From sequence record PQ571291: a stretch of DNA of 50,066 bases; one strand, 5' to 3'. A program made the position numbers and the translations under genes. The DNA is from Escherichia phage EF3-1. Within the stretch, counting starts at the first letter, position 1. Every line of letters begins with the position of its first letter. The notes under the pieces are model-generated. The model saw nothing but the letters and a program-made list of their open reading frames with translations, was not told the origin of the DNA and ran no database searches. Positions 25,546 to 40,031 of this stretch are shown piece after piece.

Positions 25546-25722
25546 ATGAAACGAGTTAAATGCATCCGAAATGATTCCAAAACGCTTCCATTCCGCGTAA
25601 ATCAGATCTATAGTGTTGGTTATAATTTCGGTGGTGGATTGTTTGAGATTTACGATGGTAGAGGTTCAACAATCCAAGCTCCTCTGAACGGTCATTACCT
25701 GGAATTTATTGAGCTAGATTAA
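25546..25722 (+). CDS. hypothetical small protein (58 aa, not in ORF track)
   Basis: ATG with SD AAGAGGG downstream of cassette; ends TAA 25720-25722. Confidence 0.4.
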   Translation: MKRVKCIRNDSKTLPFRVNQIYSVGYNFGGGLFEIYDGRGSTIQAPLNGHYLEFIELD

Positions 25723-25744
25723 CAATATCATTCATAACCTTACG

Positions 25745-25774
25745 GGCTGGCATGGTTTACATGCTGGCCTTTTT
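25745..25774 (+). terminator. rho-independent terminator upstream of lysis cassette
   Basis: GGGCTGGCATG-GTTTA-CATGCTGGCC hairpin (two G-U pairs) followed by T5. Confidence 0.5.
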
Positions 25775-25840
25775 GCGTTGTGTCAAATATATTTGAGGGT
25801 TAAAATCAACTCACCTGTTCAAAAAATAAATGGTGATATT

Positions 25841-26056
25841 ATGAAAGAGTTTTTAACTGCGGCGACGTCCAGCACTGGCGGTGCTTCACTAGTCGGTGCC
25901 GCTACTGGGCAACTTTATATTGCTGGCGCTACATTCATTTGCTTTCTTCTTTTTGGCGTATGGGGCGCGTACTGGAAGTATCGAGATAGCAAGGCAATCC
26001 AGGAGGCGCTAAACGATGGCGATCTTAATAAGGCGCTTAGGATTAGGGGGCGATAA
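25841..26056 (+). CDS. holin (pinholin-like, 71 aa)
   Basis: ATG at 25841 (M22 of track ORF); hydrophobic Gly/Ala-rich TM segments and charged C-terminus; precedes endolysin. Confidence 0.65.
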
Positions 26057-26544
26057 TGGGATTAAAAAATAACGTTATATGCGCATCGATCGGGGCTGCT
26101 TTGACGTTGACACCTACACTACTGGAACGAATCGAAGGGATAGAATACGAAGTGTATTACGATATAGCCGGAGTCCCTACAGTATGCAGCGGAATAACCG
26201 GGCCGGACGTCATACCTGGCAAGAAATACACTAAGCGAGAATGCGATGCATTGCTGATAAAACATATCGGCGTCGCTCAGCGATACGTTGACAAGAAGGT
26301 TAAGGTTGAAATTCCGGTAACGATGCGCGCCTCACTCTACAGCTTTACTTTCAACGTTGGTACTGGCGCATTCGGATCTTCTACAATGCTTAAGCTAATC
26401 AATCAGAGTAAGCACAAGGAGGCGTGCAATCAGTTATGGCGATGGGTATACTACTACAATCCAAAAACCAAAAAGCGCGAAGTGTCTAGAGGACTCAAGA
26501 ACCGACGCGCTGAAGAATACGCGTATTGCGTTAAGGAATTATGA
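26056..26544 (+). CDS. SAR endolysin (lysozyme, P21 R-like)
   Basis: Hydrophobic N-terminal signal-anchor-release segment; catalytic E-x8-D-x5-T ([16 protein letters not shown]); strong resemblance to P21 R21. Confidence 0.9.
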
Positions 26545-26945
26545 TGAAACTGAAGAAAGCGTGCATTGCGATTGCAGTGGCTGTTGGTGTTATTTCTCTA
26601 TCCGGTTGCTCGACGGCATCTGCTCTGAGCGGTTTACTTTCTGACTCCCCGGATGTTACTGCGCAGGTTGGCGCTGAGAACACGAAGCAACTGGCGGGAG
26701 TTACTGCAAAGGCCGACGATAAGCGAGAAGTGAAGGTGAGTGATTCAAATATTGGCAAGATTGACTCATCCGTCAAGAAGTCTGTGGAAGTGTCAACCAT
26801 TCAGGCTAACACGGTTAACGCTGAAAGCATCACGGTAACAAAACCGGGGAACTGGTACGATGCAATTGTAGGGTGGACTCTCGTTTTTATTGGCCTGTTG
26901 ATGATTTATTTTTCACTTCGTAAGAACGGAAAAAAAGGAGGCTAA
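26541..26945 (+). CDS. unimolecular spanin (lipoprotein with C-terminal TM domain; T1 gp11-like)
   Basis: Lipobox LSGC after signal peptide plus C-terminal TM helix [15 protein letters not shown]; ATGA-coupled to endolysin. Confidence 0.75.
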
Positions 26946-26960
26946 GCCTCCTTTCTTATT
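26931..26960. terminator. bidirectional terminator after lysis cassette
   Basis: AAAGGAGGC-TAA-GCCTCCTTT hairpin with spanin stop codon in loop; A-run upstream, T-rich downstream; convergent genes. Confidence 0.65.
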
Positions 26961-27067
26961 TGTACCTTTTCACATGAAGGAGCAACTCCCCATCCTGATC
27001 GCAAAGATTGTGTTCGCTGTCATTGTTGGCCCTCATTGAAGTAAGTAACAGGCTGAGTAACCCCTGT

Positions 27068-27475
27068 TCAAATTCTTCCTTTGTAAGCTGGAGTCTTGCG
27101 CACAATTCGACGTTCCGATCTATCAATGTTTCTACGTTCGCCAAACAAATCCTCATCACTCATCTCTCCAATATGCATCATTTCCCATGTATACCGATTG
27201 TTGTAACCATCAATACACATCAGCTTCATCATTACCGGGCGCTTAATCTTTCCCTTGCACCAGTAAACACCATCCTTGCGATCCAAGTAACCCTCAGTCA
27301 CACAACGAGCGCAAAACTCCTTAGATAGCGCGCTTGTAAATTCACGGTGAGTCAATCCAGCAGCCTTAGCAAATCGCTCACTTTCCTTGTGGGCGTATAT
27401 AAATTTCGCTATGTGCTGTCGGGTGTATTTGTCGTAACCTTCGCAGAACCTGAACAGATCTAAAAGAAGCAGCAT
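27068..27475 (-). CDS. hypothetical protein (135 aa; overlaps 26956-27159 ORF, possible frameshifted gene)
   Basis: ORF follows P-loop gene with 5-nt gap; a second frame continues to 26956 next to the terminator. Confidence 0.35.
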   Translation of the reverse strand: MLLLLDLFRFCEGYDKYTRQHIAKFIYAHKESERFAKAAGLTHREFTSALSKEFCARCVTEGYLDRKDGVYWCKGKIKRPVMMKLMCIDGYNNRYTWEMMHIGEMSDEDLFGERRNIDRSERRIVRKTPAYKGRI

Positions 27476-27479
27476 ATCA

Positions 27480-38349: not shown

Positions 38350-38399
38350 CTTAAAGTGGGAATCGTTCCTGAGCGGTTCCCTATTTTTATGAGGTGAAT

Positions 38400-38522
38400 A
38401 TGAATAGCTTTATGCCTGACTTTAAGAACTGGAAAAACGAACCTCCATCATTTCAGGAGTTGTTATTCTGCCTACTGGTTTTGACGCTATCTCTTAAGGG
38501 TGTTTTATGGCTACTATCATGA
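38400..38522 (+). CDS. possible small membrane protein (40 aa, not in ORF track)
   Basis: SD GAGGTG; hydrophobic LLFCLLVLTLSL; overlaps start of next ORF. Confidence 0.3.
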   Translation: MNSFMPDFKNWKNEPPSFQELLFCLLVLTLSLKGVLWLLS

Positions 38523-38725
38523 CAGCAGAAGATGCAGCACGCGACGCAGTTGAAGGAATGCGCCCAAATAGCTCCAGAATCGCCCACTACTACAAATCTG
38601 AGGTGTCGGCAGTGCAATTGGTCAGCGAGGTTTTAAGGCTCCCACAAGTCGATTCAGCGCGCGTGGTGACGTGCTTAAAAAATTATTTTTGCATCACTAT
38701 TAAAACGAATAGCACGAATTGCTAA
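38507..38725 (+). CDS. hypothetical protein (72 aa)
   Basis: Reads through the downstream motif (…TNSTNC-stop) and stops at TAA inside TTGCTAAAAC. Confidence 0.45.
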   Translation: MATIMTAEDAARDAVEGMRPNSSRIAHYYKSEVSAVQLVSEVLRLPQVDSARVVTCLKNYFCITIKTNSTNC

Positions 38726-38752
38726 AACCTATCAAGGGGAATGCGCTATGAT
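38708..38752 (+). promoter_or_regulatory. early-promoter cassette
   Basis: AATAGCAC-GAA-TTGCTAAAAC, 22-bp spacer with GGGGAAT..ATTCCCC inverted repeat, TATGAT (38747-38752). Confidence 0.5.
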
Positions 38753-38782
38753 TCCCCTACACCAACAAACGAGGGAACACTC

Positions 38783-39229
38783 ATGAAACATTTGATTTGC
38801 ATTGATACACCTAACAATGAACACACCCTGCACGGCATTGGAATGTTCAAAGGCCACTACATGACAGCAAGCATTTATGATGCGCGTCGCGGCGATGGCG
38901 ATCTGATGATTACGTCAAAAGACGTTAATCCGTACATCATGCAGAATCTTGGCAACAATGAATATATGGCTTACGGATGCAACGCGGTGTACAAGAATGT
39001 CAAGATCCGTAAGCGTATTGTTCGCGCATTTAAGAAAATCGCCATGAAATACTGGAAGATGAGCAAGAAGGACGCCGGACGCTGGGCGCGTAATGTTGCA
39101 GACTCATATTTCTATAGCGGAGGAGAGCCAGCCAGCTTCCTGATCGATGAAATGATGGAAAATTATAGCGGCACATTCTGCCAAAGTGACTTTGACGCCT
39201 GGGCTGAATACGAGGTCGACTGCTGGTAA
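38783..39229 (+). CDS. hypothetical protein (148 aa)
   Basis: ATG at 38783 (M15 of track ORF) with SD GAGGGAA. Confidence 0.6.
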   Translation: MKHLICIDTPNNEHTLHGIGMFKGHYMTASIYDARRGDGDLMITSKDVNPYIMQNLGNNEYMAYGCNAVYKNVKIRKRIVRAFKKIAMKYWKMSKKDAGRWARNVADSYFYSGGEPASFLIDEMMENYSGTFCQSDFDAWAEYEVDCW

Positions 39230-39272
39230 TAGCACTAATTGCTAAAACTTGCTCAAGGGCATTTGATAGAAT
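39228..39272 (+). promoter_or_regulatory. early-promoter cassette
   Basis: AATAGCAC-TAA-TTGCTAAAAC, 22-bp spacer with AAGGGCAT..ATGCCCTT inverted repeat, TG-a-TAGAAT (39267-39272), leader GCAACCAATCAGAGGA. Confidence 0.55.
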
Positions 39273-39312
39273 GCCCTTCGTTGAGTTAAGCAACCAATCA
39301 GAGGAATAAATC

Positions 39313-39924
39313 ATGGATAAAATTACCATTTGGGGTCAGACTATAAACCTGTTTCTCGGCACTCGCCGCGTGGCAATCTTTGACTTCGACGGAACACTGA
39401 GTGACGGCTCAAAACGTCTTCACCTGCTACCGACGAAAGATTTGCACTTGACGGAAAGCTGGTCTGAGTTCAACCGCGCGGCAATATTTGACAATCCTAT
39501 CCGTAGTACGATTGATGTGATGAACTCTATGTTTGCCGCTGGGTATCATGTGATCATTTTAACCGGGCGAAGCGATGAGGTTCGTTACGCATCTGAGTTA
39601 TGGCTTAAGCATCACGGCGCGCGATATGATTACTTAGTCATGAGGCCGCATACCGACAACCGCAAAGACACGGTAATGAAAGAAGAGGCGGTGCGAGCGA
39701 TCGGCATTGATAACATTCTGGCGGCCTGGGATGACTCACCGCAAATTATTCCATTATTCCGATCGCTTGGAATAACCACTTACGCTGTAGTTGACTATGG
39801 CGATAACGTTCACGATCATTTAAAATCTCATGGCGTAGATGAGGTTTGCAATCATGAACCATCTGAGCCGCTACCGCCATTTGGCGATAAAATATGCATT
39901 AAGTGCAAGGAGTTATTAAAGTGA
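39313..39924 (+). CDS. HAD-superfamily hydrolase (putative nucleotidase/phosphatase)
   Basis: HAD motif I FDFDGTL, motif II ILTGR, C-terminal acidic motif region. Confidence 0.7.
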   Translation: MDKITIWGQTINLFLGTRRVAIFDFDGTLSDGSKRLHLLPTKDLHLTESWSEFNRAAIFDNPIRSTIDVMNSMFAAGYHVIILTGRSDEVRYASELWLKHHGARYDYLVMRPHTDNRKDTVMKEEAVRAIGIDNILAAWDDSPQIIPLFRSLGITTYAVVDYGDNVHDHLKSHGVDEVCNHEPSEPLPPFGDKICIKCKELLK

Positions 39925-40031
39925 ACCTGTACGAATTTATTGCAGCGCATCCGGTATTAACGGTTATCATCCTGTTAATCATCAATCACACCATCATCAA
40001 TGTGGCAAAATTATTTTTAGGGAGATACTAA
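39921..40031 (+). CDS. small hydrophobic protein (36 aa, GTG start, not in ORF track)
   Basis: GTG overlapping HAD stop with SD AAGGAG 9 nt upstream; TM-like PVLTVIILLIINHTIINV. Confidence 0.4.
   Translation: MNLYEFIAAHPVLTVIILLIINHTIINVAKLFLGRY

Follow-up and report, generated by a model that had tools for sequence, protein, structure and literature searches.

Escherichia phage EF3-1 (record PQ571291) was analysed over a stretch of 50,066 nucleotides, called the window here, and between positions 25546 and 40031 it contains seven small open reading frames (ORFs) that are missing from the ORF track of the initial annotation. We labelled them c1 to c7 in genome order. The seven ORFs are very probably real small genes that are translated in a T1-like (Tunavirus) phage; they are off the track only through its 60-aa threshold. 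Through a search with a 16-kb query from this region, we found matches in 365 phage records, and the closest were the Tunavirus phages SA12KD, Sfin-1, LeonhardEuler and IME18, with about 92% identity over 93–96% of the query. By this similarity the window can be identified as a near-complete genome of a T1-like siphovirus (Drexlerviridae, Tunavirinae). The initial annotation had argued that the small ORFs are real genes; all seven frames are now backed by comparative evidence, and the 60-aa cut-off is the only reason for the absence of each of them from the track.

The seven ORFs are spread over three parts of the genome: the end of the replication/recombination block, the lysis cassette and two divergent early operons. 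All of them were present with the starts, stops, lengths and products first assigned to them, and all lie on the plus strand except c2. c1 (25546-25722, 58 aa) stands alone with a gap of 63 nt after the upstream gene. c2 (30136-30279, minus strand, 47 aa) and c3 (35558-35668, 36 aa) each overlap the upstream stop codon by ATGA, and c4 (35665-35826, 53 aa as read in the window) overlaps c3 in the same way. c5 (37181-37330, 49 aa) overlaps its upstream gene by TAATG, c6 (38400-38522, 40 aa) begins after a terminator and overlaps the next gene by 16 nt, and c7 (39921-40031, 36 aa) starts with GTG and overlaps the stop codon of the polynucleotide kinase gene by GTGA. The start/stop overlaps proposed for these ORFs were confirmed, with c1 standing alone. 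Longer mechanical ORFs exist for c6 and c7, beginning at upstream GTG codons at 38394 and 39903, but the ribosome-binding sites and the relatives favour the ATG at 38400 and the GTG at 39921.

Good ribosome-binding sites had also been claimed for the small ORFs, and this held for six of the seven. The Shine-Dalgarno score was calculated as the pairing of the 18 nt upstream of the start with the 16S anti-Shine-Dalgarno sequence. In these six ORFs the duplex reached −6.3 to −8.0 kcal/mol, a strength matched by only 2–5% of the window's 4,981 start-like triplets; the median for the long genes of the window is −5.95 kcal/mol. The strongest pairing was that of c7 (−8.0 kcal/mol). The exception was c4 with a weak site (−3.8 kcal/mol), but c4 is coupled to c3.

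Conservation and dN/dS in related phages had been suggested as a check, and we carried it out on about 100 related loci drawn from IMG/VR, GenBank and metagenomes. The frames were conserved and the own-frame dN/dS (omega) was 0.08–0.17. Intact candidate frames were found at 16 to 47 loci per peptide with only 0 or 1 interrupted copies, whereas 15 control ORFs of the same size, taken from other frames or the antisense strand, showed up to 17 interrupted copies. Up to 40 unique intact orthologous sequences with conserved Shine-Dalgarno motifs were recovered, and the orthologs retain length, start position and Shine-Dalgarno motif even at 30–46% identity and where the upstream DNA has been replaced. 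Among close, gap-free relatives, the own-frame omega of c1 to c7 was 0.17, 0.08, 0.12, 0.16, 0.10, 0.16 and 0.12, respectively, with zero stops, and codon position 3 held most of the substitutions. The two shifted sense frames gave omega of about 0.7–12 with stops in nearly all of them; the antisense frame that shares the wobble position had a low omega, as expected, yet was interrupted.

Several points weigh against this reading and have to be considered together. The omega values were counted crudely on minimum spanning trees, with multiple hits left uncorrected, and the synonymous excess obtained on these trees of unique sequences (P = 2e-6 for c6 to 8e-46 for c2) comes from related sequences, so the P values are only indicative. 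For c6, only 30 substitutions (20 synonymous and 10 nonsynonymous) are behind its omega of 0.16, and c7 was found in one closely related lineage only. Truncated copies occur in single relatives, c1 in pSf-2 and c5 in JMPW1, and therefore these genes are dispensable at least sometimes. Membrane topology, lipidation and localisation were predicted from sequence only, and the structure model of c4, in which a signal helix leads into a beta-hairpin whose two ends carry C29 and C56, is of low confidence (pLDDT, the predicted local distance difference test, 67; pTM, the predicted template modelling score, 0.29). A literature search found no ribosome profiling, transcriptomics or small-protein proteomics for any T1-like phage. 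Despite the crude counts, the frame specificity of the substitution pattern is unambiguous.

The same substitution pattern bears on the idea that some of the short frames, especially the 36–40-aa c3, c6 and c7, are open by chance in DNA that is conserved for regulation, structured RNA or coupling spacing. These three frames are indeed very short, neither c6 nor c7 belongs to a PHROG or Pfam family, relatives of c7 are confined to one lineage, and small genes of this kind are omitted from many public annotations. However, the substitutions are biased to codon position 3 of exactly these frames, with omega of 0.12–0.16 compared with at least 0.7 in the shifted frames, and the frames are open in all clean relatives. 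The orthologs of c3 and c6 at about 40% identity keep the length and the hydrophobic pattern, the Shine-Dalgarno motifs survive replacement of the upstream sequence, and a Rfam scan of 25000-41000 matched no family. We consider chance opening very improbable, and translated genes are the reading that we follow below.

The seven genes are presumably expressed from polycistronic operons. Six of them would use their own Shine-Dalgarno sites, and c2, c3, c4, c5 and c7 would also be translationally coupled through the overlapping stop and start codons. As a best guess, c2 to c7 may be dispensable accessory factors that act on the host envelope or on cytoplasmic targets during infection.

The seven genes are already known: all have annotated homologs, most have PHROG or Pfam families, and for c1 there is one paper of 2026. 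In phage LeonhardEuler (Bas13), coding sequences (CDSs) are annotated at all seven equivalent positions (bas13_0039, _0050, _0062, _0063, _0067, _0071 and _0075), with position, strand and neighbours as in the window; SA12KD has them at four of the seven. The annotated small CDSs of Tunavirus phages share about 90–100% identity with the window peptides, and the exact peptides of six of the seven are deposited in NCBI as hypothetical proteins. The original T1 annotation contains orthologs of c2 (ST4), c3 (ST73), c5 (ST69) and c6 (ST67). Five of the peptides belong to PHROG families, namely phrog_4788 (c1), phrog_3955 (c2), phrog_25570 (c3), phrog_8628 (c4) and phrog_5579 (c5). The matches of c2 (E = 8.5e-26), c3 (3.4e-27) and c5 (1.7e-25) are full-length and cover the whole peptide and the whole profile. 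No NCBIfam match was obtained with any of the seven peptides. The window differs from LeonhardEuler and T1 in two genes: its c4 is frameshifted (53 aa instead of 57), and its c6 is the 40-aa form, as in DELF2 and Sfin-5, while T1 and LeonhardEuler have a 36-aa form.

Public records treat c6 and c7 unevenly. Through tblastn, an own CDS for c7 was clearly given in about 13 of 45 annotated records, and elsewhere mostly only the overlapping kinase gene lay under the match; for c6, 8 of 15 annotated records had no feature at all under the match. In this 50-kb genome the 60-aa cut-off loses eight real genes or more, and the public records are similarly inconsistent. The missing small genes are a real problem, but this is a matter of annotation threshold and not a discovery, and it leaves the current understanding unchanged. 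Four of the seven products are predicted to be membrane-targeted and come from the early region, which is poorly understood in T1-like phages, and they can be regarded as reasonable candidates for host-envelope or exclusion functions. The initial annotation had called several of the products hydrophobic or lipoprotein-like. This agrees with the transmembrane segments predicted for c3 and c7, the C-terminal one predicted for c6 and the lipobox of c4; c1, c2 and c5 are not hydrophobic.

One of the seven genes, c4, is frameshifted in this genome. Its N-terminus, MMR-ILICMMAAVALAILI-VSGC, has the positive charge, the hydrophobic core and the lipobox [LVI][ASTVI][GAS]C ending at Cys22 that characterize a lipoprotein precursor, and Cys22 is conserved in at least 90% of the family members. 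In the relatives c4 is a protein of 57 aa, MMRILICMMAAVALAILVVSGC-GEVRDSCHKTGNQVTTFVMVGNVLLPITSNEITCE, and this frame has an omega of 0.16; the window version diverges after residue 33. Correspondingly, phrog_8628 matches all 57 residues of the relatives' protein but only residues 1-33 of the window c4. The divergence is caused by a homopolymer of nine G (G9, 35761-35769), which replaces GGGAA or GGGAG of the relatives with a net gain of 4 nt. Because of this run the last 19 residues of the window c4 are out of the conserved frame and end at the stop at 35826, and the C-terminal VMVGNVLLPITS...C motif of the full-length family is gone. The part lost to the frameshift is the C-terminal half, the best-conserved portion of the protein, and it holds all of the family-invariant residues V42, G43, L46, P48, I49, T50 and C56. 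The remainder of the ancestral frame, QVTTFVMVGNVLLPITSNEITCE, can still be read at 35771-35842 with a TAG stop at 35840-35842, out of frame with the c4 start. The exact 53-aa sequence was absent from a collection of 15 billion proteins.

Considering these features, c4 as encoded in the window is most likely a non-functional allele, or else the run stems from a homopolymer error in sequencing. That the G9 run arose in sequencing or assembly, and that the real phage encodes the normal 57-aa lipoprotein, is almost an even call. Some sequencing chemistries are known to produce artificial poly-G runs, and G9 is the sole run of eight or more G in the window. It is absent from 51 of 51 GenBank relatives, in which the segment spans 326–327 nt compared with 331 nt in the window. 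The spacer between conserved anchors is intact in these 51 records and in 22 other loci; in the latter, made up of 13 loci plus 9 additional contigs, it measures 115 nt, compared with 119 nt in the window. The sequence past G9 also still bears the signature of selection in the ancestral frame, with 17 synonymous and 4 nonsynonymous changes (omega 0.07), compared with 1 and 20 in the window frame (omega 4.7). On the other hand, to turn GGGAA into G9 takes two substitutions and four inserted bases, which exceeds a simple length miscall, and two independent metagenome contigs have indels of other sizes (+1 and +7) at this spot, which indicates that real mutations occur there.

The two metagenome contigs carry their c4 copies at 350-514 (L092) and 284-442 (L093). 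Both indels fall on the same 7-nt site, one as a tandem duplication of GGGAACC (+7) and the other as a change of GGGAA to GGAAAA (+1). One of the contigs has a coverage of roughly 1x.

The three alleles also raise the question of a second product, in which the alternative C-terminus (PGYYV.DG.Q...TNHIK) would be functional and reached by slippage, as dual-coding or phase-variable sequence. G9 tracts are prone to slippage, and the three independent alleles (+1, +4 and +7 nt) enter one and the same alternative frame, which stays open until a stop codon 16 nt short of the normal stop. However, the low counts of synonymous change quoted above for this frame in the shared segment set it against the ancestral one, and purifying selection was found in one of the two downstream frames and not in both. 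The slippery tract is not conserved, since the relatives read GGGAA or GGGAG and the run occurs in 0 of 51 GenBank records and 0 of 22 other loci. By our estimate, (61/64)^19, a stretch of 19 open codons is expected by chance in about 40% of cases, and 3 of roughly 80 sequences carry a shifted allele. We give this explanation hardly any chance.

Three independent events at one site suggest a mutational hotspot, and the ACC repeats that flank the site could promote slippage. Given the roughly 1x coverage of one contig and the small share of shifted alleles, this is a lead of low probability. A stronger version of this idea is that codons 33-35 of c4 (ACC-GGGAA-CCAGG) are a recurrent frameshift hotspot that results from repeated selection or from a contingency on/off switch, and not from sequencing noise. 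All three alleles truncate the conserved hairpin; if this idea were true, they would either switch off an early lipoprotein that is costly or sensed by immunity, or work as an on/off switch in a lytic phage. We regard this stronger version as improbable, and recurrent selection to inactivate c4 as less likely than a mutational hotspot. The frameshifted allele should be checked before the annotation of this genome is reused.

The intact c4 of the relatives would be a lipoprotein precursor of the Sec/LspA type with a mature part of about 35 residues, and the Gly at position +2 predicts an outer-membrane location. The mature protein may form a hairpin, probably closed by a disulfide between C29 and C56 if the structure model is followed. 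Comparison with Pfam, NCBIfam and PHROGs gave no named family and no similarity to Cor or Llp, and the homologs are named only "hypothetical protein" or "Lipoprotein". T5 Llp and T1/phi80 Cor are small phage outer-membrane lipoproteins that block receptors. c4 resembles them as a very small lipoprotein precursor of the early region with a lipobox, a residue other than Asp at +2 and conserved cysteines able to form a disulfide; it differs in having no detectable sequence similarity and a mature part of only about 35 aa. In T1-like genomes Cor is encoded elsewhere, next to the tail genes (PMC13164509). We might speculate that c4 is an envelope or superinfection-related lipoprotein.

c3, c6 and c7 are predicted to be single-pass inner-membrane peptides of 36–40 aa. 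The maximum 19-aa hydropathy of c3 is 2.46, and it contains a run of 31 residues free of charged and amide residues. The exact peptide is bas13_0062 of LeonhardEuler and corresponds to T1 ST73, and orthologs at about 40% identity retain the pattern G-H...GAF(D/E). We also considered a c4 start further upstream, at 35581, which would give an 81-aa ORF in place of c3. This was rejected: the extension has an omega of 2.3 and contains stops in some relatives, compared with 0.12 in the c3 frame. An obligatory c3/c4 pair was rejected as well; distant c3 homologs (L018 and L055) have no c4-like gene following them, and the pairing is specific to the T1 group.

c6 is polar at the N-terminus, has its transmembrane segment at the C-terminus and forms a single protein cluster. 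The exact 40-aa form is annotated in DELF2, and the 36-aa form is found in LeonhardEuler and in T1 as ST67; an ortholog with 42% identity occurs in a distant relative (L087). A strong terminator (38358-38381) lies immediately before the gene. The start of c6 coincides with a mosaic boundary (38358-38412): the window, DELF2 and the Sfin phages have the terminator, GAGGTG and the residues MNSF before MPDF, giving 40 aa, and T1, LeonhardEuler and most others have a different sequence upstream and start at MPDF, giving 36 aa.

c7 is a single transmembrane peptide by hydropathy. Its omega is based on 38 synonymous and 16 nonsynonymous changes, with 14, 4 and 36 differences at codon positions 1, 2 and 3. 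By tblastn it was intact in 51 of 51 Tunavirus GenBank records with 94–100% identity, and it forms a single 50% cluster among 1.84 billion representatives; from these searches c7 appears as an orphan restricted to the Tunavirus lineage. Two versions of the polynucleotide kinase gene upstream (39313-39924) exist among the relatives, a long one of 203 aa, as in the window, and a short one of about 177 aa. c7 follows either version, starting with GTG behind the long and with ATG behind the short kinase.

c1 belongs to Pfam DUF7244 (PF23896), with 99.7 bits against a cut-off of 27 and residues 1-58 aligned to profile positions 1-57 of 57. It has the five-strand beta-barrel fold of SH3-like domains and stands alone as such a domain; we found no signal peptide and no transmembrane segment in its sequence, and the protein is predicted to be soluble and cytoplasmic. 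The gene order is an exonuclease-like gene (24331-25482), c1, the holin gene, the endolysin gene (26056-26544) and the u-spanin gene (26541-26945), the same as bas13_0038-0042 of LeonhardEuler. Directly after c1 there is an intrinsic terminator hairpin (25744-25770, plus strand) with an 11-bp stem followed by a T-run, which is annotated in SA12KD. A hairpin with a T-run was found at the same place in divergent Drexlerviridae (L087, L049, L058 and L061), where the stem sequences are of four unrelated kinds. The terminator that separates c1 from the holin gene is thus conserved in structure, and therefore the exonuclease transcription unit ends with c1.

A stand-alone SH3 domain of DUF7244 in the lysis module of Drexlerviridae was described in phage KanT1 (Eremina et al. 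2026, PMC13164509), and we found no difference between it and c1 at the sequence level. The hypothesis of that paper, in which such a protein works with the endolysin as a cell-wall-binding accessory of lysis, is rather doubtful for c1. The position of c1 next to the lysis genes accords with it, but the endolysin is of the signal-arrest-release (SAR) type and acts in the periplasm, whereas c1 has no export signal, and the terminator splits c1 from the holin gene; both features sit uneasily with a periplasmic cell-wall-binding role. The closest structural matches of c1 are generic protein-binding SH3 domains, including the unrelated early protein Gp54 of Bas11 (PDB 9axb, the trigger of CapRelSJ46), which belongs to a different sequence family (PF25180). 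We found no evidence of c1 triggering any defence system. A cytoplasmic protein-binding role for c1 seems at least as likely as a lysis accessory.

Weak DUF7244 matches below the threshold were seen in larger early proteins (Pfam E = 0.003–0.01 for 29125-29541 and 37693-38349; E = 0.05–0.4 with our own hidden Markov model). The early proteins at 29125-29541 (minus strand), 37693-38349 (plus strand) and 32818-33030 (minus strand) begin with or repeat MK..KC... motifs, and the genome may carry several diverged SH3-like modules. We did not adopt c1 as one copy of a multi-copy DUF7244 family in this genome, for which the sub-threshold matches are only hints.

c2 and c5 are small domain proteins of established families, and their soluble fold is predicted. 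c2 is not hydrophobic, its exact peptide is present in public collections, and its T1 ortholog ST4 has the accession YP_003941. In other Drexlerviridae c2 corresponds to the N-terminal ~45 residues of proteins of 103–113 aa, and c2 matches positions 1-43 of phrog_11192, a profile of 106 positions; many of the 40 unique c2-orthologous ORFs that we recovered are 103–113 aa long. Its omega is based on 48 synonymous and 15 nonsynonymous changes. The c2-type domain is fused to a different C-terminal part in L055, the whole ORF is tandemly duplicated in L070, and longer proteins also occur in L053.

For c5, 75 synonymous and 32 nonsynonymous changes were counted. Its orthologs reach down to 32% identity with W4, C25 and C46 invariant, and its maximum 19-aa hydropathy is 1.15; c5 is probably a small alpha/beta protein that is soluble and has two conserved cysteines. 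A conserved hairpin follows the gene, and the hairpins after c1, c2 and c5 are annotated as terminators in SA12KD. Homology of c2 and c5 as beta-beta-alpha-beta domains was rejected (hhalign probability 0.2%), and a search of PDB sequences with both proteins gave nothing significant.

A blind omega screen was performed over all ORFs of 20–59 aa, under rules that required an alignment without gaps from the longest start and a frame free of stops in every relative. It recovered c2 and c3 together with many antisense artefacts. The other five (c1, c4, c5, c6 and c7) were dropped by the strict rules for technical reasons, and the screen was used solely for additional genes. Within 25546-40031 no further non-overlapping small ORF was supported. 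Outside this range, one extra small gene was found at 41826-41987 (plus strand, 53 aa), with an omega of 0.14 over 15 unique relatives. With 162 nt it is as long as bas13_0081 of LeonhardEuler and occupies the same place in the gene order, and no obvious Shine-Dalgarno motif was found upstream of it.

One of the related loci, IMGVR_UViG_2974611450_000001 (L016/L086), contains frameshifts or truncations in c2, c4, c5, c6, c7 and several larger genes. It looks like an error-rich assembly and is unsuitable as evidence of gene loss; because frameshifts run through so many of its genes, its truncated copies were left out as evidence against the small genes.

An AT-rich promoter region (about 33030-33714) separates the two divergent early operons. 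Of all sigma-70-like promoter matches in the region, the best sit in the divergent intergenic stretch 33300-33660 (for example 33395-33424, 11 of 12 positions), and the mechanical ORFs inside this stretch, such as 33410-33610, are probably not genes. Another mechanical ORF, 26956-27159 on the minus strand, is possibly not a gene either; it shares 92 nt with the 3' end of 27068-27475 (minus strand). Near 26957, a segment of about 295 nt containing bas13_0043 is present in SA12KD, LeonhardEuler and others and absent from the window and T1. We had considered this difference from LeonhardEuler in connection with the small genes, and it proved to be a common presence/absence polymorphism unrelated to them.

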